A stretch of DNA of 63,983 nucleotides, filler included, from Basidioascus undulatus (Eukaryota): the NCBI GenBank assembly GCA_000826855.1. It is 3 parts of 3 records of this genome, joined end to end, with 100 filler letters (N's around TTAATTAATTAA, not from the genome) between each part and the next. Parts side by side here need not be neighbours in the genome. Positions count along the whole stretch, not along the records: positions 21,879 to 43,625 come from JTLS01000321.1; 2 more parts are not named here. One strand, given 5' to 3'. Of this stretch, positions 21,779-43,725 are shown piece after piece. Below the pieces are notes generated by a model, which did not search any database, had not been told where the DNA came from, and worked only from the letters and a program-made list of their open reading frames with translations. Position 1 is the first letter of the stretch. Each line of letters opens with the position of its first letter. The position numbers were made by a program, and so were the translations under genes.

Positions 21779-21878
21779 NNNNNNNNNNNNNNNNNNNNNN
21801 NNNNNNNNNNNNNNNNNNNNNNTTAATTAATTAANNNNNNNNNNNNNNNNNNNNNNNNNNNNNNNNNNNNNNNNNNNN
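21779..21878. other. Artificial contig-joining linker
   Basis: 44 N + TTAATTAATTAA (stop codons in all six frames) + 44 N, exactly 100 bp. Confidence 0.97.
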
Positions 21879-22327: not shown

Positions 22328-23429
22328 TTGTGTGAGCGGCGTTGATGTTGCGGGAAGAGAACAGTTGGTGAAGGGGGTCAGGATGTAGGTAGCTGGGACG
22401 GGAGTCGGAACGCATCCACCTCTCCATGCGTACTTCACTACATTCCCCCAGAGACCGAGCCTCTACGAATTATTATGGTCTCACTCAACGAACTATTTGA
22501 ATATCTCCCCGGCCATGAACAGCCTTTCCACCCTCACTCGTCTGAGTACCCCGCCTTCTGATACTCGTGCTCGTCTGCAGCATTGCGAAGATGGTGGGCG
22601 GCGGACTGGAGCTGGCTCGCCACACCGCCGGGCACGACTATCCCCACTGTTCGCTATTCCCTTACCTACTGAGCAACCATCTTCCTCCCTGCTCCCGCAG
22701 ACAACAAAAACGACGCACGCGCCCTCTCCTCCCTCGCATTCTCCACATTCGCATCCGTCTGCACCTCCGCCACAATGCTTTCTAGATCCACATCGTCGTC
22801 CGTCGCCCTTACGCGGCGCGTCTCGCTCACCGGCAGGCCATGCTCGGCCGCGACGAGCCCCGCGAGCCGGGCGACGGCCTCGTCGGCCTGTTCCGAGGCG
22901 CGCTCGCTGGAGGATAGCCCGTGCGTGACGCGGTACTTGATCGCGCCGGCTACGTTCTACAGTAGGGTGGGAAAGGGTATAAGAGGGGGCATGGAATGAG
23001 GGAGGGGAGAGGGGGGGGGTGCCTTGGCATCGGCGAGGTCACCCATCTGTAGAGGGGTGGACAGGGCGGAAGAAGTGAGATCGAGGGTCGTGAACGGTGT
23101 GGTAGGGCCTACGTGGTTCGCCGCATCGTGGACCCGCGCGGGTTTGCTCCTGTTTATGTCCATATGTAGGGTGAGATGTATAGGCCTGGAAGTCTCGATG
23201 AGGTGAGGACGCACAAGGGAGTGGGAGCTGTTAGGCCCTGCGAAAGTTGAAAGCATGATAATGGATTTGGACATGACTTGTGTTATAGCCGGTGTTGTAT
23301 TGGGAAACATCGCCGATGTGTCTCTGATTTTCCCATATTAATGTTTCATGGGTACCTGACAGAAACAAATCGATGTGCGCTGGGACACTTTCAACAAATA
23401 GAGTTGCTCTTTTAAGGCAGCGAAGAGCA

Positions 23430-24325
23430 GTACACGATGGCACCGAGCGAGCTGGGAGGGAAGTAAGGAAGACTGGTGGTGTGCAGAGATACCGCACGAA
23501 CCGGGGAGAGAAAGACAACCTAAGGAATCGAACGAAAAGGACAAAATGGAAAGTGCGCAGAGCACAGGGGACAAAGACGCACGGAGTACGTAGAGGGATC
23601 GTGAACAAGGATCGAATAACTTTTGGGCCCGATTCCAGGACGCTCGCAGCGTCTCGGCGAACTCCGAGGGAAGAAAGTCAGGTTTACATGCTCCGAGGCA
23701 GCGAAGAAGCAGCGAAGAAAACGAGAGGAGTGCGCAGAGGCACCGGGAACGCGACGAACTGAGTGCTCAGCGGCATTCCGGACGAAGAATGGGTGAGCAG
23801 CGGTGCCGTGACGGAGGGATGAGTAACTTTTGGGACAGGTAGAAGGGAGGCAACCCACAACATCGTGGTAAAATCTGTGAGAAGGGAATTAGGGGTACGT
23901 TTTCCGAGGTAGCGAGGAAGAAGCAGTGCGTGGTGGCACGGAAGAACAGCGGTGCCAAGAGACACCACAAGAAACGGAGAAACAAGAACCCACACAAGGA
24001 CGTGGGCCCAGGGGTACGAAACGAGAAGGAGAATGAGAAGACGTGCGCAGAAGCACCTTGAAAGAAGAGGAGCAGCGTGCGCACAGGCATCCAGGAAGAA
24101 GAAGAACGGTGTGCACAAAGGCACGAGAAAGAAGAAGGGCTGAGTGCGCAGAGGCACCCAAGAAGAAGAACAGTGTTGTACACAGAGGCACCCTGAAAGA
24201 ACAAGAACAAAGTGGGCAGATGCACCCACGAAGAATAACAACCACGGAGCGCAGAGGCACCCGCGAAGAAGAGAGTGCGCTGAGACACCAAAGCAAAAGG
24301 ACGAGCGGTGGGGCGCAGAGGCACC
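23430..24325. repeat. Degenerate ~34-bp-period tandem array with core GTGCGCAGAGGCACC and A/G-rich spacers
   Basis: Core copies at 24043, 24077, 24111, 24144, 24178, 24212, 24247, 24275 and 24311. Further copies at 23730 (exact core) and, more degenerate, at 23430, 23481, 23553, 23763, 23927, 23952 and 24002. Confidence 0.85.
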
Positions 24326-24729
24326 CCGTGATCGACGCCCCGTATCTTAAGGATACCGGGTTGTAGATGCGGGCGGTATGAAGTGAAGATGGTGAGAGGA
24401 GTGGCGAGAGGAAAAGAGGGGAGTGCGGCGCGGTGCCAGCGGAACCGGAAGAAGAGCGAGGAATGGCGCGCACAATGGTCGACTGCCATACCGCTTGCGG
24501 TAGTGCGTCTGTAGACTTGGATAGAACTTGAAGAAGAAGTAAAAATCAAGAGGGATTTCATTAGGGGAACCCCAGTGGGGAATGTTGGGTGGAACCGCTG
24601 CAAAATCTCTGGTTGCACAATTATGAACAAGACAGCTGACACGATACCACAACCGAGCTCCATTGCGACACACGGCCCAAGGTTTATTTGTAGCTTCTCT
24701 TATAAGTTCAATTTCTCATAAGCCTTACT

Positions 24730-25133
24730 CATAGTCCCCTTCCTTGGAGAGTGCCATTTTGGGGCATGCATAGCAATTGCGGACATTCCAGTTGTGCAGG
24801 CCTCTGGGCTATGCGCTTGCAGGATCCGTGGCATCCCAGTGCTGATCACTCGACTGGTGCTACCATGCTTGTCCTTTAACTCCCTTCGAAGAACTCCTAT
24901 CCTACCGGCCGTTGCGGAGGATCCCTACAAGTGTACATTGGACGTTCCTAGTGGCAGCGCATGAGCCAGCCTGGCTTGTACAGACAGATGTTTGCCAAAT
25001 CACATCACCTAGGCGGGTGGATGTGTTGTTTTTGACCCATACTGTGACCCCACTGAGGCTTGGCCCAACTTTTGAAGAATGGGTGCAGAAGGCCTGCCAG
25101 TGCACCGGAACGGTCACTGTCCTGCAAGGATGA
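24730..25133 (+). pseudogene. CpG-poor degenerate coding relic
   Basis: A protein-like frame (LESAILGHA*QLRTFQLCRPL...PLTPFEELLSYRPLRRIP...LGPTFEEWV) is interrupted by stops. TG/CA is visibly in excess over CG relative to neighbouring genes. Confidence 0.35.
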
Positions 25134-25696
25134 GGCAGACCACAGACCCCTGACAATGCAGGCAGGACTGAGGACGTAATTCTCTCTTGATTCCAACCTT
25201 CTATATACTTTTATGGATAAACACATCTCCAGCTTATCTCGAGTGATGGGCAAGCCAAGCAGCAGCTTAATTGCAGTGCGCCTGGGCAGTGCATAAGACC
25301 GAACGCAATGTCCTGCACGTATGACTATAGGGGCTCACAATCACATTCTCTAACAACACATTTAACTTTCAAACCCCAAATCACACTAGTATATAGAGCT
25401 GAAGGACCGGCACAGCGCAGTGCACTCACAGCTCAAGAAGAACCGGCTGTCAAGTCGGCGATCCCTCAGGGTTTAAGACGATACGAGCTGGGGTCGGAGA
25501 GTGGGCCATCAAAGTGTCTTTAATATACGGTCTAAATGTGGACTATGAGAAAAGGTAGAGAGTGAGAAGAGCGACAAGCAAGTGAAATAGTCAAGGAAGG
25601 TGCGCAGTGCGAAGACACTGAAGCGGCGCGTCAGCGGGCGCGCTCGTCGCTGCGCTGGTCAGCCTCCGACCATCATCTGCTGCCCACACGCTCGCC

Positions 25697-26674
25697 ATGC
25701 ACAACACTGTCGCGCGCTTGAACTCGCTGTCGGCGTTCGCGACGTCGACGCTGATGGTCCTCCTGGCCGCTATTGCGTTCACGAGCCTGGTCAGGCCTGC
25801 GCCGGCGCTGGACGGCCGGGTGGACGTGAAGGGACTGAACGTGTGCGTGCTGGCTAGTTGGCTCAAGCCCCCCTGGAACTAATGGAGGCAGCCGTTGGAC
25901 AGCGTGATGGGTCGGGCCAGCCCGTATGCTCGGAAGGAAGAGGAGTTTGTGTTTGCGAGGTTTGACGTCGACGCAGGTGCGCTCGCTTGACCTTCCACGT
26001 CAACCTGGCATGCCTCACCTGGAGAGCTGACGCGCCATCTCTCTGCAGACGTTCGCCCGCTCTTCCAAGACTGGAACACGAAGCAGGTCTTCCTGCACCT
26101 GACTGCGGACGTCGTTCGCGATGGGGTGCGTCCAGCCGCTCACGAGCGCTGCATGGTCCAGACGCGGCAGCTGACGGCGTCTGGCTTGGCTGTCACTCCT
26201 CCACTGAGCAGAAGCCGTCCAGGACGGTGCTGTGGGATCGTATTGTGAGGAGGAAGGCGGACGGGCGGGTGAGGATTGAGGGGGCGAAGAACAAGTACTC
26301 GTGGAAGGGCGGGGACAAGGGTTTCCGGTGAGTCTGAGCTCTGAGGGCTACGTGGGAGCAAGACTCGCTTGGCAATTTTGGCGGCGCTTTCGGTGGGATG
26401 TGTGGCATCGCCAAAGAACGCCGTCGGGACCGCATCGGGCGAGACCCACCCGCCGCTCGCTCGCTGTCCTCGGCCCGCTCCTCGTTCTGATGCACTGCCG
26501 TCCTCAGCCATACTGACGCCCTTCGATTGCCCCCCAACCCACAGCAACGCCCAAAACGTCACCCTCTCGCTCGGGTACGACATACAGCCTTACGTGGGCA
26601 TCTTGCAGAGCGGGGTCGTCGCGCGCACGTCAACGCCTGTTGACCTGCCGCCGGTCAAGAGGGGGGTTGCTTGA
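25697..26674 (+). CDS. SPC3: Signal peptidase complex subunit Spc3 (SPC22/23)
   Basis: MHNTVARLNSLSAF followed by a transmembrane segment, FDVDADVRPLFQDWNTKQVFLHLTA, VLWDRIV, KNKY and YDIQPYVGIL. Confidence 0.93.
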
Positions 26675-28309
26675 TCTCATTTCCGGGCTGACCATGGGCT
26701 TTTGTCATTCTCCGGTGGTCACATGAAGATATTGATACCCGCTTCAATGCGCCACCACGCGGCAGGACGCTTCCTGCGTTTACTAGCTACTGTGGCTCGA
26801 TATCTGACACTTTAAAAATTGGGCGGAACTCTTCGATCACACACAAGTTCCAGATGTTGCTAAACGCACACGGCATGTCCCTCCGCTGCCCCACTTCCTC
26901 TGGACCACCTGTACATGCGCCTCCATCAGCGCGACTGTCATTTCCTTGGGAGTGTCGAAATCCGCGCATGTGAAGGCTTGTCCAAACCTCATGTATTCCA
27001 TCCACGATGGGCAAGCCCAGCAGGAGGGTCCCGGTACGCAATGCGGGCAAGGGGCAATGACCATCACCACGTCCGTCTGCGGAAAAGAGGACATAACAGA
27101 CTTTCAGAGAGTCGTCCGGGAGTCTTCTACCTGTTGCGCAATCCGCCTCGGCTTGAAGTGAAGGAGACCCATTAATAAAAGAAGGACTAGAAACTCCTGC
27201 AGCTGAGCAGGGGTGCACCAGCTTCGCGGCGAATGTAATGCGGTCTGGGACGAGTCGACGACGACCCGTCGACCATGAGGTGGTAGGGTCATCGTCCGGC
27301 ACCTCAGCCTGCTGCATGATTACACTGCTGTGTAAAAAGTCGGAGGCGCTTGTGCATACGTCAATTATGTATATCGTAATAACCGCGCTCCTCCCCAAGC
27401 GCACTCACCATCCCCTTAACCATCTCGGCAACCCCCACGACAACGCAGAGCTGTTTATCCACGACAACATCGCATCAAAGCAACTTTTGCTTGCACCTCG
27501 GGTACTTTTTGCCAAAAATTAATCTGAGTCCTCCGCGTACTGAAGTAACCAAATGATTATTCTTTCAAGCTTGTGCGTGTATCCGACATCCACGAGCTTT
27601 TCTGAATCATGCTAGGGTCGACACGAGGCGGGGCGTGCTTTTCCGATACAGGTGTTGAATATACCTCACAGGTGAGGAGACTAAGAAAAACTCTGGCTTG
27701 CGCTATCTCATCGGGCAGCTAGTCTAGCTGAGGGAAGGCAGGCTGCCAGGATAGAGTCGTCAGCGCCAGAGAGTGTCGTGTAGGCTCGCACAGGAAGGAT
27801 TTGCTAAGCACATCGTTCCGTATGCTGAAACTTTAACATAATGGAAATTAAGGTATCAGAAAAGGACTGGTATATTCAGACTTGTAGCGTGAGGTATCAC
27901 CGGTGTGTGACCACGACCACAGCCGTGTCCGCAGCCAAAACACACACAAAACATCGCGCCTGCTTTAGTCTTTCTCTTTCTGCCCACAAGATCATAAAAG
28001 GATCAAATTTCCTCTCGTTTTTCAATCGCTTGATGACACCTGGTGAGAATCTGTCGCCGCATGCCCATGAAGACTGGTGCTGTCCCCAATCGGCCGTGGG
28101 ATCTGCTCGTGTTGGCGAAAGAGACAATGTGGCTGTATTTCATGAATCTATTGTAAAGGGTTCGTTACATAACCCTCCGTTTGGGCGAGCATCCGCATAC
28201 CGCGACCGCCGTGCGGTCCGCGCTTCCTCGATCTACATGCCCTCAGATTGCCTTGTGATCACCTTGAACCTTGACTGACACCTTCCTTCTGCTCGTCTGT
28301 CTGCTTCCA

Positions 28310-29645
28310 GAATCGACACGCTCACTGCTCTAGCACTCATTATGGGTCTGTACTTCGAACCTGGGCTTGATCCTGCAGGTCGCTCTCTATGTCGCAGTCG
28401 GCGCCGCACTCACCGCGCAGTTGTCGTTACGCATCTGGCTCGCCGTCAGCAAGCCCTGACCAGCCCCAGCAGGGGAGCTCTGAGGCGGAAAAGATGAGTA
28501 ACATCATGTCTTTCTTCCTGTATTTTTCTATGTGTACGACGTACTGGGTGCTCGACAACTTGATGCCTCATTGCTATTCTGCCATGATTTTCGGGTTTGT
28601 CGTGGTGAGTTGGTCGGTCGTTTCCGGGCAAATGTGACACTAATAGTATATGGAAATGGATATGTTCAGTCGCTCATGCTGCGCTACGGCCTCGGGGAGC
28701 TCTTGGTGCCCAGCGCAACTACGCTGCCATTACCCGCCGAGCTGACGGTCGTAAGTGCTTTGTATTTGTTTCATCAAAGACACCTCGCTTGGGTTGCCCG
28801 GCTATCTGCTCTGCTCTACTTGGCGACTCTCAGCGACGCGGTCGCCGTTGTCTGGGCCGCAACAGCACAGCCCGACAGCATTATCTATCCTTCCATCGTA
28901 CTGTTATGTGTATTGTTCAAGGTCGGGAGCAGCTTCAATCACATAGTCAGCTTCGAGGAGGCCCTCGAGAACTTGCTCTCTGGGATGGTTCGTCCCCCCG
29001 TGCTGTCATCTGCGTAGAAGTTGGCCTCTCACGCTCATACGGCCTGCACCTTCACAGAGCTCGCAACTAACCATATTGTATGCCGGGACTAAAACTCTCG
29101 AGCTCGTCGCACTCAAATTGGGGCCTCGGCCGCCTATGTGCGAGAGGCGTCCGGCGACTTGTTTATTCAGACTCTCTTCTCCCAGCTTCCCTCTTCGGCG
29201 ACCTGGCGAACGTCCCTGCATTTGCCTACCGTCTCAACTGCCACCTCGCAGGAGCTCACACGCCCCCTCCACGTCTCCTCCGTTTCGAGAAGAGGCTGCA
29301 GAACCACCCGGCCGACACCGGCGTCGCTGTCCAAATTCCCCCGTGGCTGCCAATCGACCGCTCCCTTCGCTTTCCTTACTTTTTCACTGTGATTCTCTTG
29401 ACAATATGGCCTCTGCTCACCTCGGCCTCCATTACCTGTTCGACAGCGCCAGGACGCTCTCGCTCAGTGCGTCCATCGTGGCTATGCCATTTGTAGGCGT
29501 CCGGCTCGCAGTCGCTGTGTACCTTCGGGGGGAATGGGAGGTTGTGTGGGCCTACAGCGAGGAGTGGAAATGCCATCGTCGAGGTTCCGAAGTCTTGAGG
29601 TGGTCCTACAGCTCACGGAGACGACTGGGGCGGGAAGACGTTTAA
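28310..29645 (+). CDS. Possible multi-exon membrane protein, perhaps degenerate
   Basis: Several hydrophobic exon-like segments bounded by GT/AG signals. No family recognised; the most hydrophobic early frame contains stops. Confidence 0.25.
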
Positions 29646-30430
29646 TGTCGGGTTTCTCTTCGTGTTGACCTTTTGTTCCGGAACTCGCACCGTTGCACGA
29701 GCGTTTCATTTGTATCGCATTCTTTTTCGCGCATATGCTTTCAGCAATCGTTTATCTTCGTATGCAGGTGTTTTACTCTGGCCTGTTGCTGGACCACCTG
29801 GGTAAGGCACGACAGGGCTCTTTCAAGCACGGTCGCTAGCTGATTCTCCGCCAAGACGCATAACAGTGAAGATACACTTCGATCCTTGCCCAAGCGGTTG
29901 TGCAACTGATACATTGTTTAAGGGTGAACTATTTTTTAAAATTTCAGCATATTCAACACGGAATGCATCACATTTGTTCCAACGACAGGGACGCAGTCAT
30001 GCAGCGAAGCCCTCTCGATTCAAGTGCAAATGTATGCATTATCCACCTCAGTACGCTCCCTACCCTGTCTACGGCGCAATGATATTGCTCCCAAACCCAT
30101 GAACAAGCACGTCCCGCATCGTCAACGCCCAGTTCGTCTTAGCTCCCAGGCTGTGAGACGCGGGGTGGGAAATGATGACGAGCCACTCCTCGAACCACTT
30201 CTCCTTATTCTTATACGCCTGGCGGGCACAGCTACTACGCCAATCCGTTTCAACTCTCCTCCCTTTCTGGTGACTGGCAACTTACACTGTTGTGTTGCTC
30301 ATATTTTATCGCGCTTGCCAGCACATCCCCTGATCAAAGAGTTGTTCATTCCATTTCGCACTCATTCTGCTACATCAATGGCATAGGCCTCTCCAGGTTA
30401 TCTCGGGTGGTGTGAGCTCCAATAAAGGGC

Positions 30431-30921
30431 TTAGTTGCAGTGTGCCTGTGAAATACCCATTGCCAGTCAGTTCAGAAGTCGACGCAAGCTGTACCAGAAG
30501 AGTTTCCACAGCACGCACCGACTGGAGGGCCTCGGCGTTGGCGACGTCTCCCGGGCACTGGGACTCGATGCAGCTCCGGGCGGCGTCCTTGAAGGGCTGG
30601 GAGCCGCAAACACAGCCGAAGTCGGTGCTGAAAAGGGGAGGTCATCAGAATCGAGTGTCGGCGACAGGTCGTGGAACAGGAACGCAGGAGCGGACTCACA
30701 TCGCCGAGCAGCCGCCAGCGGAGAGGGAGGACTGGAAGCAGTTCAGGACCTGGTTTGGAAGAGGATATGCATGTTAGCCAGGCTCGGAGACTTAGATAGC
30801 ACAGTGGATAGATGGTGGTGTGCAATTAACGAGAACTTACGCAGACGGTCGGGGCCTGAGCGGAAACGAGGGCCGGGAGGAGGGCAAGCGCGCCGAGGGG
30901 GATGAGGCGGGTGAACTGCAT
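30431..30921 (-). CDS. Small secreted stand-alone CFEM-domain protein (~90 aa, 4 exons)
   Basis: Signal peptide MQFTRLIPLGALALLPALVSA, then PTVCVLNCFQSSLSAGGCSAITDFGCVCGSQPFKDAARSCIESQCPGDVANAEALQSAHCN*: eight Cys in CFEM spacing. Confidence 0.88.
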
Positions 30922-32401
30922 TATGATGAATGGAGCTGAGAGTAGAGGGTGGTGGGTGTAATGTTCTTTTCGGTTCAACGAGTAGGACGCTGGTTGAGAA
31001 TAACACGATCTTCCCCTTGCAGCGTCTGGTTTTTATGTGCTCGCATTCTCCACCCGCGAGCACTCACTGCTCCCCTCCCCCGGACCCATGACCAGCTGCC
31101 CACCGCTCCCATCGTCACACGGCCAACACGGCCACCAAAAGGATGAATTATTACGGCAAGTCCACAATGTCGAGGAGGGTCTGTGCGGCATATACCTACG
31201 CGAACAACCTGCAGGAGGAGGAGCGCAGTCGGATTGTTGCTAATTTCGCAGCAGTCGCATGACCACATACTATATTAGCGAGAAAGAGTCGCCCTCACCT
31301 ACCTTTGGCGTTTTCACATGTTGCTTTCCACTATCCAGCCCATGGTCTGAGGGAGAATGAACCTGCATATGAGTGCCGGTAACTGAGCAGCCCGGGCGGC
31401 CATGGCGGCACGGAGGACGGAGGACGGAGGGCCGAGGAAGTTGCAGGTGATCATCATCATCAATGAATGGTCTGGGTTGGCCTTGGTAGTTGCAGGAGGA
31501 ATAAGGGGCATTAATGCACAGCTCCATTTGATGGATCCACACTGAAGAGTTTGTCCGTTGGAACGATGGTAGGAAGACCTTCCGTTTGCAGTGCACACTT
31601 GATCCGAGCCTCCTCATGTCTGCATATCTCAACGACCCAGAGATGGTGCTCATCATTTGAACCGTGTTATTTTGTGCATCAAACATGAGCTGTACACGTG
31701 ATGATCATTCTAGGCAGCTTCTCTTTTTTTGGGACGCGCTGTCGAGTTAACCACGGTTGAGGAACTGGAGAGATCCACCTATTGCTACCTCCTCCGCCAT
31801 GCTAACTGTGCAGACATATGTGAATAAAAGCGGAGTGAATGTACCAAATATTGTGTCTTAGACGCGTACCTACGGGGAGCAATAATTGCGTGAAAGGTGA
31901 GCCGCCAAGTCGTCGACAATTGCAGCTGTCCAGCCACATTGCAAGAGCAACGTAATACGCCGATGCAGGAGGATCAGCCAGGTTGTTGTTCTTGGGCTCA
32001 ATTGTTCTCCAAGAAGTCATATCTAGAATAAACTTCCTGTAGGTATACGTAAACGGAAGGGCAGAGGCTCTGATTTCCCGCATCACGCACACTGGCACTC
32101 ACTGCGACAGTGGCTGCGCTGGGAACGACAGACTGTGACTCTTGGTAGAATTCATCGAGATCGACTCAATCTTCTGGAGCAGCTTTGCCCATAGGAGGCA
32201 CGCAAAAGACCGGAGAACCTGTATTACTTTAGCATGCGTCGTGAATAGCACGGACTCCAGTGCCGCACAAGGTCGCTCGACTCATCTATCGCGTTACTTC
32301 AGAACTCACAGCATGGACATGGCGGCTCGTGAAAAGGGAAGTCGATGAAGGGTGCAAGTGCACATGAACCGACTTGTTAGACACTCCAAGCCTGCTCAGG
32401 G

Positions 32402-33019
32402 ATGCCGGCAGCCGAGCAACCTCGCAGCGCACCGATACCCTTCCTCGACCCATCCAACTTTCTGTCCCTACCCACCCGGCTTATGCCAGAACCCCCTCCA
32501 CAAACTCCCCCCCGACCACGCTCACCATTCACCCGGCATGCGCCCAAGCCGTGGTGGGCCGCCTGGGACGCGGTGCTGCGCAAGCTGCACGCTGAGCGGA
32601 ACCGGACCCGGCGGAAGCTGCAGAAGCTGCGTACGCCTGAGGCGGAGCTTGCGTACAAGCACGCACGGAGAGAATGGAAGGCGGGCGTGCGGATGGCTAA
32701 GAGGAATTTTGAGCGGAAAAGGGAGGAGTGGAGGGAGAGTCTGTTGAGGGAGGAGGGGCAGGAGGACGAGCGGGAAGACCTCCGGCAGGAGGAAGACGCG
32801 CGCTCCTCGCCTTCTCGCCTTCATCAATCCGCCGCCGCTGACGCCGCTGGCGCCAACGTCGACGACGAAGACGCCTGGTTCATTAACGCCCACGACGGCG
32901 GCGACAACCTCGACGATCCTGACGACGAAGACTCAGACGACGAGAGCCTCGCGCGCCTACATCAGCGTCACCAGCAACCCTCGACCCCGACGCGCCTGGA
33001 CGCGCCGCCCCTCCATACC
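32402..33019 (+). CDS. 206-codon in-frame upstream extension of PAN2 containing a LINE-ORF2-linker-like helical domain
   Basis: Open frame with no stop before the PAN2 ATG; coding-like codon use; KPWW..LRKLHAERNRTRRKLQK..YKHARREWKAGVRMAKR followed by an acidic tract. Confidence 0.55.
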
Positions 33020-36000
33020 ATGGCTTCCTCCTGGCACTTTCAGGCGCTCCTCCCGCCGTACACCCTGCCCGCCCCCATCACCGCCCTCGCATTCGACCCG
33101 TACTCGGAGCTTCTCTGGACGGGCAACGCGTCGGGACAGGTCACGTCTCTCTGGTCCGCCGCGCAACCGACGCGCTACACGAGCTTCAACGCGCATCGCC
33201 CGTCGCCCGTCAAGGAGCTCCTCGTCGATGACCGAGGCGTTGTGAGCTTGGGGGAGCGGAGCGTGAAGGGGACGAAGAGGACGGGTGTGGGGCGGTGGAT
33301 TTTGAGGTGAGTCTTGCTTGACAGTCCTGCGCAGGCAGTGGCAGGGCAGTGCAGACGCGGTAGTTCGCTGTCGCTGTATTTTGCTAGGCGGCGTAGAGCA
33401 AAGAATTTTTCATGCCTGATAGTTCCTTGAACTGACCCGTATGGTGTCTCATTTTCTTCAACCAGCGAGCCCCGATTCTCCCTCAACTCCATGTGCTCCC
33501 AGCCCCGCTCCTCCGAAGTCGTCGCTGGCGGCGCGCAGCTTTCCCTCGTCGTAATCAACACCAACAGCGGTAGCATAGTCCGCAAGGTAAACATCTCCCT
33601 TTCCTACACCAGTACCCTAGCTCGTTCTTATCGACCTTCCCCTCCCCCCTGCGCAGGCCGACGTCACGTCACCTCTCCTCTTCCTCCAAGCCGGCCCGCG
33701 GAACTCCGTGATCTGCGGCCATACAGATGGAAACATCTCTTTGCGCGATACACGCACAACCATGAGCGCGCAGCACACCGTCCAGGCGCACCGGGACGGC
33801 CTGCTCGGGCTCGAGTCGAGCGGAAACCTGCTCCTGAGCTGGGGGTGCACGACTCGGTGCGTTTCCGACCCCTAGCGCCGTGTTGTTTAGCTGCTAACCT
33901 CACAAGGTCGGATGGAACCAGACTCGGTCGGACAGTCCCGGATCCCCTCGTTAAGATCTACGACGTCCGTACGCTCAAACCCCTCGCACCCGTCTCGTTC
34001 CCCTCTGGCCCGGCGTTCGTCCGCGTCCACCCCCGCCTGTCCACGACCATCGTCGTCGCGGACATGCACGGCTCGTTCCAGGTAACGGACATCAGCATGC
34101 CTGGTCCGGCGAGCTACCATCAGGTGAGGAGCATTCGTTGTGCGGTATTTCAGAACGATGTTGAGGAGAAGACCGGGGATACAGGTCGAGCTGCCTTCGT
34201 ACCTCACCTCCATGGCGATCAGCCCGGCGGGCAACCACCTCGCGTTCGGCGACGCAGACGGTCAGATCCACCTTTTGACGGACCTCGACCCAGAGCATGA
34301 GCCGGGGACGTTCAACCAGTTCGAGGGACTCGAGCCCGAGTGGCCGGACGTGCCGGAACCCCTTCCGAACGTTGACTGGAACGCGCGAACGTGCGTTTTC
34401 TTTGGTGTCCCCATGGTCCCTGGTGTTTTCCTGACGCTCTGCTGTATTCCTCGCCACCCAGTCCCCTCAACTCGATCGGCATGCCGTACTACAACGCGCC
34501 GCTCCTCTCCTCCATGCCCCTGCACACGCCCTTCCCCGACACCTCCCCGCTCTTCAACCCGGCCCCGCCGATCCCGCCCATCGTCATGTCCAGCCTGCGC
34601 ACAGGCGACTTCCCCGCGAACGCGCCGAACCCGATCGAGAACCGCGGGCGGCGCAACCTCGCGTACCGCCGCCCGGGCAAGAGCGGGAATCCCGGCACGG
34701 GGAGGAGGAACAGCGAGCCGCGGTTCAGGAGCGAGCAGGCCAAGGAGCGGATACGGAGGGGAGGCGTTATGGAGGAGGAGGATCAGGTGAGTGCCCACAA
34801 ATGTTTTCGCCCGAGCGAATGGCACGCTGACTTAGCGTGCTGTTTAGGCCGATTCTGCGCCCGCTGCTCCGGACAGTCCGAGCGCTGTACACTTCACAAT
34901 GCCAAAGCACTACCGCAAGGTCGAGATCAAGTACTCCAAGTTCGGCGTGGAAGACTTCGACTTCGGGTGCGCACTTCTCTTCCAGTTTACTTGTCTCTTG
35001 TTCGCTCAACTTCCACTCTTCTTCTCTTTCCAGCTTCTACAACAAGACGCGCTACAGCGGACTCGAGACGCACATAGCCAACTCGTACACCAACGCGCTC
35101 CTACAGGTCCTACATTATACCCGCCCCATCCGCGCAGTCGCGACCGCGCACATCGCGCTCCCCGACCCGCGCGAGAACTGCCTGCTGGCCGAGGCCGGGT
35201 TCCTGTTCCGCATGCTCGAGGACGGGAAGGGCGTCAACTGCCAAGCAAGTAACTTTTCGCGGGCGCTGTCGTCTGTCCCGCAAGGTGCGTCTTCCGTCCA
35301 CGCCGCCATCGTTCTGTGGGCGGTCGGCTGACGAGGGTTGATGTGATAACGTGGTGCGCAGCCAAGGCGCTCGGACTAATTGACTACGAGAGCGACGGCG
35401 AGGCGCCGTACGGGAGCATGATCCAGAACTTCAACCGCTTCCTGCTCGAGCAGATGGCGGTCGAGAGCGCGGCCTTCCAGCCGAGCCCGCACCTCATCCG
35501 CAACGACGCGCTCGAATCTCGCCCCGCGTCATCGCCCATCACTCAAGTGCTCGGCATCGAGGCGACCACCGTCAGCTCGTGCACAGACGGGTGCGGCACG
35601 CAGGCCGTCCGGGACGGTACGACCCACGTTGTCGACATGATGTATCCGCGCAAAGTACGCATGGCTGGCTGGGTCCGGTGGGCATTATTCATGGAGGACG
35701 CAGCTGACGCCCGACGGCATTTGCGCAGACGCTCTCGAACGAAGCGCCCCTCCCCACCGACTTCTGCTCCATCCTCCGCGCCTCCATCATCCGCGACAAC
35801 TTCGCCAAGCACACCTGCCCGATCACCAAGCGCTACGTGCCTCTCCACACGCGCCGCATCCTCACCTCCCCCGGCGGACACCTCCCGCCCGTGATCGCGA
35901 TCAACGCGGCCGTGCACACGCCCGAGCACCTCGGCGTCTGGCTCAACCCAGCCAAGCCGCCCAACGCCAGGCCCGAAGACACCGCGCCCGCGTCATTCTT

Positions 36001-37822
36001 GCCTACCTGCATCGGCATGCAGAGGCTCGAGGACGACGTGGTCGTTACGGCTAAGGAGCACTTGTTCCACAAGGATACGCTCGTTTACCACCTCCGAGTA
36101 TGTCGAACCGGCTAGAGAGCATGTTCGGGGTGCTTGGTGTGCTGACGCTGCGGCATTTATGGTCCAGGCTGTCATCGTGCAGATCCAGTCGGAGCGCGAG
36201 CCAGCCCACCTGGTGTCCATTGTCCGCAGTGCGTCGAGCGCCAAATCACTCTCCTGGATATGCGGCTCATTCCTCTTTGCTCTCCAGTTCCCGACGACCT
36301 CCTTCCCGAGAACGCGACCAGCCCGTGGTTCATCTTCAATGACTTCCTCGTCCGCAACATCAGCGAGCGCGACGCGCTGACGTTCACAACTTGGAAGGTA
36401 TGCTACGCTGCTCGTCCGATATGCTCGGCTCACCCACGCTAACCGACCATTCGGCCTCGCGCAGGTTCCGTCTGTGGTGTACTATGAGCGCTCCAACTCG
36501 CAGGAGGTTCTCAACTACTCAGCCCTGCCCAGGGGCATCGACCCGTCCATCCTCTACCAGGATTTCTCCATTTCGTGGTGCGCTGGATCCTGTTCTTGAA
36601 GTAGACTGCTTGTGGACGCTGACGGGGATGTTCAGGGATCGGGACGAGTCGCTTATCAAGCACGAAGTCCTCGGGCCGGACGAGGTGCCGGGCAAGGGCA
36701 CGCTTGTTGCGATCGATGCCGAGTTCGTTGCGATGAACAAGGTCCGCCACGCTGACTTGCTGTCAGTATCTGCAACGACTGAGATGAACGTTTGAACGTC
36801 TGCAGGAGGAGGTCGAATTCCGCTCGGACGGCACCAAATCGGTTATTCGTCCTTCGCGCCTCTCGCTCGCCCGAGTGTCCGTCCTGCGCGGCGACGGTCC
36901 CAAGCAGCGCGTGCCGTTCATCGACGACTACATTCATACAAGCGAGGCCGTGGTGGACTACCTCACCGAGTTCTCCGGAATCAACCGTACGTCCTGCAGA
37001 GTGTGACGTTTGGTCCACAGATACTGACGCGGGGGCTTTTGCGCAGCGGGTGATCTGGATCCCAACACTTCGCCGCATACCCTCGTTCCGCTCAAGGTCG
37101 CGTATCGAAAGCTCCGCCTGCTCGTCGATCTCGGCTGCGTCTTCGTCGGGCACGGTCTGGCGAAGGACTTCCGCATCATCAGTACGCCAAACTGTCCTTG
37201 TGATCTTGCCGGTCGTTGCTGAACCCTGCCTTTCTCGCCAGACATCTACGTCCCGCCCGAGCAGATCATCGACACAGTCGACCTCTACCAGAAGAAGGGC
37301 AACCAGCGCAAACTTTCGCTCCGCTTCCTCTCCTGGTTCCTCCTCAAGCAGGACATCCAGCAAGCCTCGCACGACTCGATTGAGGACGCGCGCTCCGCGC
37401 TCCTACTCTACAAGATGTACAAGGCGTTCGAGGCAGACGGCCGGCTCGACGATGTGCTGGACGACATTTACGCGGAGGGGCGGAGACTGGTACGCCCTCC
37501 GCGTTGCACATAACCGCTGTTGCCATTTTGCTGACTTTCGTATCTCTTCGAACAGAACTGGAAGCCTCCAGCACCGCACGTCCCGACGACAGCCGAGATC
37601 CTCGCCACGCCGTCCGCCTTCCCTCCCTTGCCGACCACCTCGCCTCGACAACCCCCCCGCCTCGTGACACCGTGGCATCAGCAGCCCGGCAAGCCCGGAA
37701 TGGCGATGGACTCGCCCATGTCCATCGCCTCGCCCCCGCTCGCGCCGACGCCCGGGTCCGAGGCATCCGCCTGGGCACCGAGGCCTCCCGGCACTGGCTC
37801 TGTGGGGCCTTGGCGACCTTGA
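33020..37822 (+). CDS. PAN2: Poly(A) nuclease catalytic subunit Pan2 (WD40 + pseudo-UCH + DEDD exonuclease), many exons
   Basis: [121 protein letters not shown]. Confidence 0.97.
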
Positions 37823-38126
37823 CACCGCGAGAGATGACTTGGACTGTTTTGCTTCGTCTGTTGTATTGCTAGCTTGATTCATTGAGCATTATGCATCGCT
37901 GTCTATCCGTGGGCGGGTTTGCCGGTAAACGGCATGGCGAGTTTGTCGAGAATCGGACAGAGAACGGCGGTCTGCGCCGGCGCACCTTACGGCTACTGTG
38001 TTGGCCACTGTCGCTTGTAGACTTGCGAGGCACAGCGTTCTGAATCACAAGTCCGCCAGCTGGCAATCGATGCACACGCTCGATCGTCAAGTAATACCAG
38101 AAATGACTGTCCTCTCAAGCAACACT

Positions 38127-39612
38127 TCATGGCAGCGTCGAAGCTGGGAGGGTCGTCCAGTCCACCCCCTTCACGCTCGAGCATCAGCATAGGCACGCCA
38201 TGGGCAAATTGCAACGGTCGCACCTTCCCGTAGCGCTCCTTTATCCACTCGTCCGCCTGCTTGAAGTGGCCCGTGCCGAAGAAGCCTCTACGAGCGGAGA
38301 GCGGGGAAGGATGCGGCGACTGCAGGACGAGGTGCTTTGACTGTGCGTAGACGTAAGTCGGAAGTCATCGGTCGTGCCCAAGGTGTATAGGGGCTGTGAT
38401 TACGCACCTGGTCGATATCTTGCACCATCTTCTGCGCCCACAGCCCCCAAGCGAAGAAGACCAACCCCTTCTCGCTATGCCTTTGCGCAACGACTTCCAG
38501 CACGCTGTCATGGCGGAGAAAAGTCAACTGTGGCTGCGCATCGCAAGTAGAGTGAACGTACCGCTTGGTGAAGGCCTCCCATCCCTTCTTTCCGTGCGAC
38601 CCGGCCGCCTCCTTCCGGACCGTCAGGGTGCTGTTGAGGAGCAGGACGCCCGACTCCCTAGACCAGCGCGCAAGGTGACTGCAAGGCAAATAAGCTTAAG
38701 TAAACCGCCGTGGCCCTGGATAATGGAGGAGCGTACCCATGCGTAGGAGGGGTGAACCCTGGATATTCCGCTCTGCAGAAGAGGGCGTCAGCTGCAGTAA
38801 GGCAGCGGATGGAGGCCAAGAGGCAATCGTGGCGTACGCGAGCTCCTTGTAGATGTTCTTCAGCGACGGAGGAACCTTCACTCCCGGCTGGACGGAGAAT
38901 GCCAGTCCATGCGCTTGGCCAGGTCCGTGGTAGGGATCTTGGCCGCTGTGAGCGACGGTGCGTTAGCATCGCGCACGAGGGCGCGTGAAGCGAGAAAAGA
39001 CGTACACGATGACACAGCGCACATCGTCGATCGAGGTCAGGCGAGACCATGAGTAGATGTCCTCGCCTACGGACCAGCGATAGTTAGCCATCAGTCGCGA
39101 TGAACCCGGAAAGGGCAGGACACACGAGCAGGGAAGATCTTGTGTCCTGCCTTCTTCTCTTTCTCCAGGAACTCCTTCAACTGCCTCCGCCGGACAGTGA
39201 GCTGGGCGCGCGGGTATCGTAGAGATTGGACACTCACCTTCATGAACGACTCGCTCCGCATATCGCTCTCCAGCGCGTCCCACCACGACTTCCCCATCGT
39301 CGTCCGCTCCAGCTCGAGCAAGTCCGCATCCGCCTCCCCGTCTTCGTCCGCCTGTGCTGGAAGAAGGCGCTCAGGCAGCTGATTCTCCGCCGTGGACGGC
39401 GCGAGGACAGCCGCTTTGGCTGCGGCCGCAGGCTCGAGAACGGTCGTGAGCTTGTAGGATGCTGATGCCGCCACGGCCGCTGGGCGCGAGCCGTGCCGGA
39501 TCTTCTTGGAAGGAGGCGACACGGCGGATGGGACGCTCGCATGAAGAGCTGCGGAGGGCGGGAGGCTTGAGCTGCGGCGACGGACGAGCGTCGATGGTTT
39601 GGGGGGTGTCAT
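38127..39612 (-). CDS. UNG1: Uracil-DNA glycosylase (family 1)
   Basis: [67 protein letters not shown]. Confidence 0.97.
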
Positions 39613-40128
39613 TGCTGGTGGATGGTTGTGGAGAGAGGGCGAGAGCGATTCGGAAGACGCGACCAAGACGCGTCGCAAAGCTCAGCGCGTCCTACCGCTT
39701 CAAAGAACGGCAAACAATGCTGAGTGTCCCTGCGGATGACCGGAGATGTACATTTTGCTCCATATCGTATACATTTCTCATATCTGCTCCATTTCACGAC
39801 GTGTAGTCTCATGATGAATGTCGGCGTTGACCGTCCGGCGTTACAGCGTTGAGGAGACCCTGCCGTTCCGGCGTCTGATGAGACACCATTTAACGAGCAC
39901 CAGGCATTCGCTCCTGGGGAATTTTCTGATAATAAAATCGTGGAAAACTACCAGTCCAGAAGTTATGCGGCTCACTAGACAGTGGATGGAGGGCATTTTG
40001 TTGTAGCCCGAGCTTTCCTCATTCAACATCTGCCTAACGCAGCACAGCTACGCATTGCACCCTAACCGGACGTCCCTTCCTTAATTTGAATCCGTAAAAT
40101 CAGCAGAACGTGATTCATCTTATTCAAC

Positions 40129-40925
40129 CTAGTGAATATGGCGAGATGGGCAACAATTGATCTGAGCGACGTACAACTCCTCGCGGCGGAACCTCCGCTG
40201 TTTGCCTGCCATCCATTCCTCGCCGTCCTCCGCCCATTCGAGCACGTATGATTCCGCCTCTTCCTCCGAAACTTCCTGATCTAACCTAGAGGTCCAGTCA
40301 GGAGTGGGTTGAAGTTGACTATTGCATGAGCCCGACCACTGCAACAAACATAGCGTCGCAATGTAGAGAGATTTTGCGTAACTCACAAGGCTATGCATCC
40401 CATGAAAAAATCCGCCAGAGTCACTCCGTTCGGGTTCTCAACCCGTTGTACGACCTCAAACCGGAAGTCGTTGAGGACAATCTCCAGCTCGGTCGCGGGC
40501 GGCTGGATGGCGAGCGCGCACGCGAGTGGCCGGTGCGATAGAACCGGCGCACGCCAGGTGTCATCCCACTCCCACGGGAGCACAGATGTCGGCCACGTTG
40601 GTGACGTTTGGACAGAAACGAAGCTCCCATGTTGCGAACTCGGGGAGCGAATGAGTACGCCGGCCGCCTTTCCTTCGGTTCCGACGATTGCAGGGCGGAA
40701 CGCCCCCACTGCAGCAGCCCAGTCAGGCACGCCTAGCTCTCGCTTGCCGGAAAAGACACTGGAATGCCACAGCCGAGGGCGCGCAAGGCCGCGAGCTAGC
40801 GCTTCGGGAGTCGAGTGCGCACGGAAGGCGCGACAGGTGCGCAAAGGTGCGACGATTGACGTGAGATCGAGTGGAGCGAAAATTTGATCGAGCAGTTTGA
40901 CGGGCTGGTCAGGCAGTGTGGTCAT
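40129..40925 (-). CDS. F-box-like hypothetical protein
   Basis: MTTLPDQPVKLLDQIFAPLD...LRTCRAFR at the N-terminus; VENPNGVTLADF motif; one intron near 40330-40385. Confidence 0.5.
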
Positions 40926-41342
40926 GGTGGTCGGCAAGAGGTCAAAGATGAGAGCTCAAGTCAAGAGGGTGGGGCCTGTCCACGGGCCTACTACGCTTTT
41001 CTTGAAATCTGCTTGTCGGCTTCATAGGTGTGCGGCACGCCGTGTTCTAAGTGCATTTCGATCTTTGTCCGAATGAAAGAAAGTAGTATAAAGTGAAATG
41101 CAATGCAACGTCGAAATGTCAGCTGATAGTTTGCAGTGTCAGACGCAGCGGACCTGGTTCAAAGGTGGTATTTGGTTCATCCAGATCACTGCGAATGATG
41201 TACACTACGGAATGCCGGAACAATGCGCTACTTGTCGAAGGGTAACAGTGCGATGCGAAGAGAGAAAAAGCAGAAGTGTCAAGAACCCAATAAGAAAGGC
41301 TACCGGTGATCCGGTCCGTACGCTGCACCCTGCAGCGCGCCG

Positions 41343-43522
41343 TCAACGCCTCTTGGAGGCGGAGGCGGAGTTGCGCGCGGCTTGCTTGCTGCATGTCCAG
41401 ACACGCTCAGTCAGCCATTTCCCACGAAATAGAAAGAGTTGCCGAGTGTGTGCAGAAGAGAGAGGAAGAAGGAAGACGCACGCTGCCTCCGCCGCCCTCC
41501 GCGCACGCTTCTCCTCCTCCATCATCGCCGCCTCGCGGTTCATCGCAGCGACTTTCTGGGTAGAGGGGAAGCCCTGCGCGAAGGAACGAACAGCAGATCA
41601 GCCTTATCAGCCTTCTTTAGCATCGCAATCGGACGAGGTGGGAGAAAGGCACGCACAACTTCCCTGGTGGGCGTGGAACAATCCAAGGTCAGGTCAGCCT
41701 GTCCGCCACGAGAAAAAGTCAGGGAAACGGACCAATAACCCGGTGGAGTCTTCGCGCGGTCCCTGTTCGTCCCCCAATCCTCGATCAATCGGTGCTTCCG
41801 CCTCCCCTCCCCAAGCTGCGATCGCAGACACACCACTTCGCGCGATGCCGGGACGTATCGTTCTTGTGCATCTCCATCTCCCGCTTCCGCCTCCTCTCCG
41901 CCTGGCGGGCACTCTCGACGGCGGCGTCCCGCGTCGGGCTACGCTCGTTGTCGTCCGCGTCCTCGTCCTGCCAGATCGGACCTTGCGGGCGAGGGACGGG
42001 TTTGACGACTTCGTAGTACTATCTCGCGGTCCGGATACAGTCGGTCAGCGCGGGTTGCAGGTGAGAAGAGCGAAAGGAGAGGAACATAAGGGAGACCCGA
42101 TGCACCTCGCGGCAGCACTCGCAGTCCCCGCCGTGGAGCGCGGCGCGCTCGTCCCGCTTGCGGACGACGGCGTCGTACGCGAACGGCAGGCCGTCGTTCG
42201 TCTTGGGGTCGATGGGGTACAGTCTGTTGAGGCCCTCATCCTCTGGGCTGTCGTCCGTTCCCATTTCAATCAGACTTAGCTTCAAAAGCACTTTCCTTGG
42301 ACGCACCGAGGGATAGACGTCGCGTAGCGACCGCGGCCCTTGTACTATTCGGCGATGAAGACAAGAGTTTCAGCAACGACTGATCGCCTACCGGGAACAT
42401 GGCCGGAAGGGCTAACGCACCTTGTATGGGTCCTTCTCCAATTCCGCTATGCCCTTCCTTCGCACCGAGCGAAGGTAGCGCTCCCACTCGAGTCCTTCCA
42501 GCGGCCCAGTGGGCGTCTCGAACTGCCCCTCCCCGCCGCTGCCGTCCTCCCTGATCGGCGTCGCACGTCCGCCCTGCGCCGTATAAAGTGGACATGTGAG
42601 TCAAACCCCACCGAGCTGATGAGAAACTGCGCACGCACATCTTCCACCCGCGGGCGCTTCGACCCAGGTGTCTCTCGCGCCTCCCCCCGCGCCTTCTTCC
42701 GCGAGCTTCCGATGACGTCGCTGCACGACGGAAGGCGCGATGGGCCCGTGCGATTGACGTCGGGGCTCAGGTCCGCCAACGCAGCGGAGCGCTTTAGCGG
42801 CGTAGAGGCGCGCTCCTGTTGATGGGAATTGTTAGTGGAAGAAGCTGAGCGAATGAAAGGATTCGCGAGAACGAAGACGCACCTTGCGCGAGCTCCCGCT
42901 GTCATCGCCCGCCCGGGCGCTCCGCATATTGGTCTAGCATGAAGGTCAGTAGAAAGGTCGAACACAAGGGTGGGAAGCGCAGCGAAGAATAAGATACGGA
43001 GGAAAAAGAAGACGCACCTTTCTCGCGCCCTCGCTGCCGTAGGCAGTAACTCCGCCCGCGCTGCTCTGCGTCTTCGTACCTCCGGACTGTCAGCAATCAC
43101 GCACGAGAACGCTTGAGACCCAAACGAACAAATACGCACCTTCCTCGCGCTTCCAACCTCCTCCCGCTCCTTGCCCTTCGGCGTCTTCGCATCAACGCCA
43201 GTTTCAGCCCAAAGCACCAAGGAAAGGAGAAGGACAAGCAACACCAAAGACGCACCTTCCCCGCGCTCCTGGAATGCTCCCCTTCCTTGCCCTGAGGCGT
43301 CTACGTGCGGCATAGCTGTTAGCCAAACGCCGCAAGGGGAAGGGTGGGGGGGAGAGCGAAAGACGATGTACCTTCGCCTGTGCATGCGGGGAGAAGAGGA
43401 TCTCGAAGTCGTCCGGGGTCGGATTGGGGTCTGCCCCAGAGGCGGCGGGGGGTGAGCGCTTGACGTCTGCGGGCGTGCGGATCGTTCGGGGCGGGGCGCT
43501 GCGGACTATTGCGGACCTTCAT
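41343..43522 (-). CDS. SAE2: Sae2/CtIP (Ctp1) DNA end-resection factor
   Basis: C-terminal domain: FAYDAVVRKRDERAALHGGDCECCREYY, SRHR, KTPPGYWEVGFPSTQ (via a 7-nt micro-exon). The start codon is tentative. Confidence 0.88.
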
Positions 43523-43625: not shown

Positions 43626-43725
43626 NNNNNNNNNNNNNNNNNNNNNNNNNNNNNNNNNNNNNNNNNNNNTTAATTAATTAANNNNNNNNNNNNNNNNNNN
43701 NNNNNNNNNNNNNNNNNNNNNNNNN
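43626..43725. other. Artificial contig-joining linker
   Basis: 44 N + TTAATTAATTAA + 44 N. Confidence 0.97.

Follow-up and report, generated by a model that had tools for sequence, protein, structure and literature searches.

Does the mRNA decay enzyme PAN2 of the fungus Basidioascus undulatus begin at the methionine where solved fungal PAN2 proteins begin, or does it carry, at least in one isoform, an additional N-terminal segment encoded by the DNA directly ahead of that start? The question arises within a 63,983-nt stretch of the genome assembly GCA_000826855.1 (hereafter the window, whose coordinates are used throughout), made of three parts joined with filler, of which positions 21,879-43,625 are from JTLS01000321.1. 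In it, the conserved start of the PAN2 gene, ATG 33020 on the plus strand, is preceded by a long stop-free stretch in the same reading frame. The first-pass annotation of this DNA had taken the upstream stretch for a domain of a long interspersed nuclear element (LINE) retrotransposon fused to PAN2. We consider that it would be a translated, lineage-specific (orphan) N-terminal extension of PAN2, at least as an isoform, a reading in which we place about as much belief as doubt, and we leave open the origin of the helical hairpin that it is predicted to encode.

The reading frame upstream of PAN2

The frame in question runs from stop to stop over 32381..33310 (plus strand, 309 amino acids) and is in phase with the PAN2 start. 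Between its first ATG, 32402, from which residues and codons of the extension are numbered here, and ATG 33020, where the protein continues as MASSWHFQ..., there are 206 in-frame codons without a stop, just as annotated at first pass, and the peptide quoted there, KPWWAAWDAVLRKLHAERNRTRRKLQKLRTPEAELAYKHARREWKAGVRMAKRNF, indeed occupies residues 49-103 and is followed by an acidic tract. The frame is closed by a TGA (33308-33310) that lies within the GTGAGT donor (33307-33312) of PAN2 intron 1. The openness of the 213 codons in 32381-33019 exceeds chance, as this DNA stays open in the given frame in only 135 of 20000 mononucleotide shuffles; the GC-rich background helps but is insufficient, and in this DNA the remaining five frames stay open over just 132-165 codons.

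The assignment of the normal PAN2 start to 33020 also holds, as it aligns with the N-termini of the WD40 domains of solved fungal PAN2. With the extension plus exon 1 as the query, residues 218-302 align to residues 23-107 of solved fungal PAN2 chains (4d0k_A, E 2.1e-12; 4czv_A, E 2e-8; 4czy_A, E 3.5e-8), i.e., the gene encodes an N-terminal WD40 domain homologous to that of solved PAN2, and the upstream 206 residues are covered by no PAN2 chain in PDB. The family PAN2_N was found at E 0.0037, below the Pfam cut-off because only one exon was in the query. From ATG 33020 on, the usual layout of canonical fungal PAN2 (4d0k_A, 4czv_A, 4czy_A, and 6r5k_A) is shared, but here 206 more in-frame codons stand ahead of the conserved start.

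The evidence that carries the reading as a translated extension is the coding signal. A three-base periodicity sets in at ~32520 and extends without a break or a change of phase into PAN2 exon 1; 31400-32480 shows no periodicity, and GC by phase is flat at 32360-32480. Overall GC climbs from ~0.50 to 0.63-0.67 at ~32300 and is kept through PAN2, as in a gene body, and the annotated retention of CpGs is borne out by an observed-to-expected ratio of 1.08 (1.20 in the PAN2 coding sequence and 0.80 in the upstream intergenic DNA). The coding-like codon use claimed along with it stands from ~32520, i.e., for codons 41-206, and falls for codons 1-40: third-position A+T is 0.19-0.24 over the former, 0.15 in PAN2 and 0.42 over the latter. 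Base by base, the third-position composition is A.06, C.51, G.34, T.09 in the PAN2 coding sequence; A.08, C.16, G.65, T.11 in codons 41-125; A.09, C.57, G.20, T.15 in codons 126-206; and A.30, C.40, G.17, T.12 in codons 1-40, with the high third-position G of the hairpin probably due mostly to its K/E/Q/R/W/L content.

Under a codon log-odds model trained on a crude PAN2 gene model, codons 41-206 score -0.004 bits/codon, higher than the other five frames and a value equalled by none of 2000 shuffles; all 108 non-coding windows lie below them (-0.77 ± 0.20 bits/codon, maximum -0.18). Coding-versus-non-coding trinucleotide log-odds, accumulated from 33019 in the upstream direction, reach a maximum of +42 bits at 32750 and drift down upstream of 32522, and the strongest PAN2-like codon signal is that of the acidic tract (32807..33019). 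Approximately 165 codons are coding-like in the PAN2 phase, with a weaker signal than the core gene has; codons 1-40 resemble a leader. The in-phase codon bias favors translation of the extension. An origin of the periodicity in triplet-repeat expansion was rejected, as Tandem Repeats Finder reported no triplet tandem array but only four short ones of 7-9 nt period, of which the two at 32806-32854 have periods of 8-9 nt. A gene on the minus strand was likewise rejected: the antisense in-register frame (32522-32932, 136 codons) has a low-complexity translation and a lower score. Neither a separate gene signal nor an RNA family nor a repeat accounts for the stretch in Pfam, Rfam, repeat and copy searches; at E <= 1, Rfam yielded just two sub-threshold chance matches, and there was no tRNA-like match.

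Candidate starts of the extension are ATG 32483 (M28), the closest ATG 5' of the onset of the coding-like signal, and ATG 32402 (M1). We infer that the extension may be translated as follows: transcription starting upstream of ~32480 would permit translation from either of these ATGs, and 179-206 residues would thereby be added ahead of the WD40 domain, in the order of a brief lead-in rich in proline, the hairpin with its first two thirds basic, and a disordered linker of acidic character. ATG 33020, with its optimal context, would still yield the canonical protein via shorter transcripts or leaky scanning. Judging by amino acid composition alone, the basic hairpin could bind RNA unspecifically or target the protein to the nucleus, with the acidic tract possibly masking the hairpin.

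The predicted hairpin and the LINE ORF2 linker

AlphaFold2, run on the single sequence of the extension (mean predicted local distance difference test score, pLDDT, 67.5), predicts two helices, residues 49-76 and 79-135, joined by a turn at T78-P79, with pLDDT of 77-88 over residues 51-130; the rest is predicted to be disordered save for short helices at 42-45 and 181-189. The first two thirds of the hairpin are basic and its end is acidic. Foldseek against PDB gave 54 rows at E <= 10, generic helical hairpins throughout, and 0 at E <= 0.001. In ESM-Atlas, the nearest named clusters for residues 40-125, at 0.94 and 0.93, are of fs1K10_C (Pfam PF28493), a family that makes up seven of the ten best named matches; we treat this as a lead only, as just 10-33% of cluster members carry the family and the shared features (168 and 157 of 256) are under the guide value of 170. 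A scan of residues 40-125 with a copy of Pfam that may lack PF28493 returned nothing even at E <= 10, and no paper on fs1K10_C or PF28493 was found in the literature. Fragments labelled Exo_endo_phos_2 or RVT_1 appear in ESM-Atlas at 0.77-0.81, again as a lead only. Peptides of the window itself, used as queries on metagenome and viral contigs, detected no related locus.

The proposal of a LINE origin rests on a premise that proved correct, namely that a helical segment led by PWW lies between the endonuclease and the reverse transcriptase (RT) in LINE ORF2. A short linker motif, PWWNEEC, was scanned as a degenerate DNA pattern over metagenome contigs and returned 60 loci, in 20 of which the translation of the matching frame shows a basic helical continuation after the motif. 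The linker profile was built from 13 loci; the 47 dropped were duplicates or near-duplicates (L020, L038, L039, and L061), short fragments (L016, L042, and L047), and 40 whose frame lacks the basic helical continuation, including a distinct ...YQPWWNEECTGSL... family and frames stopping at the motif. Twelve open reading frames (ORFs) were scanned with Pfam: in four (L013, L015, L024, and L032) Exo_endo_phos_2 ends 72-87 amino acids before the motif, and in three of those four RVT_1 begins ~185 amino acids after it; L026 shows the beginning of RVT_1 below the cut-off, and the other seven, which are short fragments, are without a family. It is this arrangement, with the endonuclease upstream and the RT downstream of the motif, that places the linker where the premise had it. 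In viral contigs the PWWNEEC pattern occurs at one locus, in an unrelated ORF of 977 amino acids, and the linker profile finds nothing. In prokaryote genome contigs the profile has four loci, all via the same PWWNEEC pattern, and none of them was used.

Two side observations concern the motif. Seven metagenome loci (L005, L007, L031, L043, L046, L048, and L053) have a common non-LINE context, ...AATGSYQPWWNEECTGSLT..., and therefore the PWWNEEC heptapeptide also occurs in an unrelated conserved family. LINE-type linker segments were also seen in L062 (1501-1737, tblastn E 2e-14) and L063 (1501-1692, E 6e-5), on contigs filed under a Brevinema sp. bin and a Peribacteraceae bin, which suggests eukaryotic DNA binned into bacterial metagenome-assembled genomes.

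Residues 40-135 of the extension were scored against a hidden Markov model of the 13 linkers (alignment A1). The alignment keeps the register proposed at first pass (PWW, turn, Y, and AKR), but the significance of this likeness depends on how it is counted, and the similarity is equivocal. Under HMMER defaults the score is 0.0 bits after a composition correction of 18.8 bits, and 782 of 2000 shuffles do as well. Without the correction (--nonull2) it is 18.9 bits, with 3.2 for the reversed sequence, 5.4 ± 2.2 for shuffles and none of 5000 shuffles reaching it; still uncorrected, 134 of 5000 shuffles reach the score when PWW is held fixed, and the residues after PWW alone obtain 15.3 bits, reached by 9 of 5000. 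Among the 1034 ORFs of at least 40 amino acids in the window, the extension ORF ranks first when uncorrected (14.7 bits, the next 10.6) and is outside the top eight when corrected; a window-level maximum of at least 14.7 arises in one of 40 shuffled ORF sets, and the reversed set tops at 9.1. Between A1 and residues 40-135, hhalign reports a probability of 28% and P 6.3e-4 over 44 columns, a score that none of 160 full shuffles and 8 of 160 PWW-fixed shuffles reach. When compared with PDB, the linker profile itself picks out helical filament proteins designed de novo (8ub3_A, E 2.1e-4), with no chain of a LINE ORF2 among its matches; therefore helix-turn-helix features alone can produce scores of this kind, and a null made of shuffles is too lenient. 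Helical-hairpin motifs can, as a caution of wider use, pass shuffle tests without homology.

With the LINE linker the extension would share, as modeled, a PWW that opens a long helix, then a turn and another helix bearing a basic, AKR-like patch; PWW at residues 50-52 does head the predicted helix 49-76, although all 13 profile sequences were preselected for PWWNEEC. It differs from the linker in requiring a 3-residue insertion after PWW and in lacking the NEEC of the profile, whose sequences were chosen for that motif, as well as in standing without an endonuclease or RT on either side: the extension itself gave no match to Exo_endo_phos, Exo_endo_phos_2 or RVT_1. That no such remnant lies nearby had also been annotated, and it agrees with our scan, in which none of 86 ORFs over 22389-42276 carries RVT_1, Exo_endo_phos or Exo_endo_phos_2. 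Searching the window by tblastn with seven LINE ORFs gave 38 high-scoring segment pairs at E <= 10, the best at E 0.093 and none below E 8 in 31000-33020. Nor was a second copy of the stretch found by blastn or tblastn, in a window of 64 kb that makes this a weak argument. In human L1 ORF2p a "tower" is placed between the endonuclease and the RT, with helices that form an AlphaFold-predicted hairpin and are not resolved in structures (PMC10830420); the predicted topology of the hairpin described here would be compatible with it. As those helices are unresolved in the solved structures, Foldseek against PDB is no test of a LINE origin.

Translated extension, leader or captured linker

Several observations weigh against translation of the extension. 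All 28 PAN2 windows (0.31 ± 0.15 bits/codon, minimum 0.056) score above codons 41-206, codons 1-40 are non-coding-like at -0.71 bits/codon, and the trinucleotide log-odds are roughly flat, i.e., neutral, over the hairpin. Solved fungal PAN2 proteins start where 33020 does, and among the four in-frame ATGs the start context is best at 33020 (cataccATGG, A at -3 and G at +4), those of the 5' ATGs being weaker; two out-of-frame ATGs (32538, 69 codons; 32674, 8 codons) lie within the stretch. The canonical model, at 1185 amino acids, already compares with the 1150 of Magnaporthe oryzae PAN2, reported with an N-terminal WD40 domain (PMC13042520). Relatives of the extension are also lacking: phmmer against 1,835,955,588 representative proteins gave no match at E <= 0.001, word-indexed protein searches with the extension alone, at near and longer lengths, gave none either, and no Pfam family was assigned to it or its sub-segments (Cwf_Cwc_15 at E 0.083 and DUF6366 at E 5.6 are far below the cut-off). 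A word-indexed search with the extension plus exon 1 was likewise without a match, PAN2 orthologues included.

Much of this would be expected if the stretch were an untranslated 5' leader or promoter-proximal DNA, open through its GC-rich, purine- and acid-codon-like make-up, or a decaying coding relic, with PAN2 starting at 33020. The neighboring frames are open as well, and CT-rich blocks sit near transcription starts in fungi, so the C/T-rich tract 32436..32535 could be 5' leader or core-promoter DNA instead of coding sequence and could mark the transcription start; moreover, the +42-bit signal is strongest in the acidic tract, where a GAC/GAG-rich composition rather than translation might explain it. 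However, a periodicity of 166 codons in the exact phase of exon 1 is unexpected for non-coding DNA, a frame as open as this is rare among shuffles and comes without a triplet array, and a 500-nt leader with a 69-codon out-of-frame upstream ORF would hamper PAN2 translation. We thus regard a leader as possible but less probable than a translated extension. A different transcript structure, i.e., an upstream exon joined via an acceptor near 32546 (cccaAG/CCG), a small gene fused by stop loss, or an assembly error, would fit a coding-like signal that starts at ~32520-32546, right after a pyrimidine-rich tract and AG, with no good start codon at its onset. Such a structure seems very improbable, as there is no coding signal or family match on either strand of 30924-32400, no free-standing homologue of 113-361 amino acids was found, there is no space for a terminator and promoter ahead of 33020, and by eye no in-frame donor of good consensus is present.

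The most far-reaching of the alternatives is that the hairpin is an exapted linker, the "tower" helices between the endonuclease and the RT, of a non-LTR (long terminal repeat) retrotransposon ORF2, now joined to PAN2 in frame and present in a translated long isoform. The motif is real in LINE ORF2, standing after the endonuclease in four long ORFs and before RVT_1 in three; the alignment is in register, the uncorrected scores of the whole segment and of its tail are rare among shuffles, the extension leads the ORFs of the window by the same count, the hhalign P value is low, and L1 ORF2p has a hairpin-like tower in that place (PMC10830420). Yet the default HMMER score is nil and the rank is lost with the bias correction, the hhalign probability is low with 8 of 160 PWW-fixed shuffles as good, the profile prefers designed helical filaments to any LINE chain, phmmer, BLAST and Foldseek are without a match, and neither a remnant of the endonuclease or RT nor a second copy is seen in the window. 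In addition, a 5'-truncated insertion would retain the 3' end of the element and not an isolated internal 250 nt. We therefore think this origin unlikely, and LINE exaptation of the hairpin stands unproven. Of the first-pass interpretation as a LINE linker, the premise and the register of the alignment hold, and the statistical support for homology is equivocal.

What follows for the cell differs between these readings. From PAN2-PAN3 structures, the WD40 domain is known as the part of PAN2 that binds PAN3 and recognizes the poly(A)-PABP particle; therefore, a translated extension could alter the recruitment or localization of PAN2, and the WD40 domain of this lineage would carry an extra charged hairpin with an acidic tail on a general mRNA decay enzyme. 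If, as we doubt, the fungus captured the ORF2 "tower" linker without endonuclease or RT and fused it to the N-terminus of PAN2, such that the long isoform binds RNA or is redirected, the captured basic hairpin might direct the enzyme into the nucleus or towards the transcripts of retroelements. The fusion would then be the first case in which an ORF2 linker became part of a host protein, and a rare co-option both of the linker region and of LINE ORF2 sequence in fungi. At present the locus mainly poses a gene-model question for one orphan N-terminal extension, and lineage-specific N-terminal extensions are an already known kind.

For host isoforms that took up LINE coding sequence there is a precedent in vertebrates, the exon derived from L1 ORF1 in MYL4 ("Lyosin"; PMC12129022). 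If a LINE origin held here, the likeness to the MYL4 case would be that a LINE-encoded nucleic-acid-binding piece is added in frame as an alternative isoform. Cases of the MYL4 type are ORF1-derived, vertebrate, made via alternative splicing, and accompanied by expression and purifying selection, whereas the source in B. undulatus would be an ORF2 linker in a fungus, known from its sequence. Literature searches, judged from titles and abstract openings, showed neither a comparable extension of PAN2 nor an ORF2 linker that had been exapted, and the closest printed case found is that of the ORF1-derived vertebrate exons (PMC12129022).

Gene model and surroundings

The PAN2 gene model is our own crude dynamic-programming model (18 exons, 1185 amino acids from 33020), in which 33020-37819 on the plus strand is apparently split by ~17 short introns of ~40-120 nt. 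UCH_1 was detected on three exon-bearing ORFs (E 9.1e-36, 4.5e-20, and 3.3e-14) that cover the contiguous profile positions 1-274, and thus a UCH-like domain, corresponding to the inactive one of PAN2, spans three frames, switching twice within 1 kb. As to the C-terminal DEDD/RNase T-type exonuclease domain of PAN2, the ORF pieces of 36343-37510, scanned unspliced, have no Pfam family at E <= 0.001, the model translation not having been searched for exonuclease motifs. Features of the locus are listed in the table.

Table. Positions and properties of the features at the PAN2 locus, in window coordinates
Feature	Position	Strand	Remarks
CFEM-domain secreted-protein gene	30378..30923	-	Divergent upstream neighbor; CFEM E 1.8e-6
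Stop-free stretch	32381..33019	+	213 codons, in frame, adjoining the conserved PAN2 start
First in-frame ATG (M1)	32402..32404	+	Context tcagggATGC, G at -3; candidate long-isoform start
C/T-rich tract	32436..32535	+	Encodes proline-rich residues 12-45, without codon periodicity
Second in-frame ATG (M28)	32483..32485	+	Context cggcttATGC, weak C at -3
Predicted helical hairpin	32546..32806	+	Residues 49-135; PWW at residues 50-52, AKR at residues 99-101
Third in-frame ATG (M98)	32693..32695	+	Within helix 2; context gtgcggATGG
Acidic tract, predicted disordered	32807..33019	+	Residues 136-206; links the hairpin to the PAN2 start; pLDDT 49-67
PAN2 exon 1	33020..33306	+	Conserved start, beginning of WD40
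PAN2 intron 1	33307..33465	+	GTGAGT donor (crude model)
Remaining PAN2 exons	33466..37819	+	Crude dynamic-programming model

The divergent CFEM gene has a signal-peptide-like start near 30923 (MQFTRLIPLGALALLPALVSAQ...). The intergenic DNA that separates it from the first in-frame ATG (30924-32401, 1.48 kb) has a GC of 0.52, a CpG observed-to-expected ratio of 0.80, and no three-base periodicity, and on neither strand of 30924-32400 was a Pfam family found among the 86 ORFs scanned (22389-42276). Farther away, an ORF fragment at 25966-26328 (plus strand) matches the signal peptidase subunit SPC22 in Pfam at E 8e-5, just below the cut-off, and the longest open frame near PAN2, of 395 amino acids at 41092-42276 (plus strand), has no Pfam family at E <= 0.001. 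Finally, four runs of exactly 44 N (21779-21822, 21835-21878, 43626-43669, and 43682-43725) occur as two pairs with 12 bases between the runs of each, and look masked or withheld rather than like assembly gaps.

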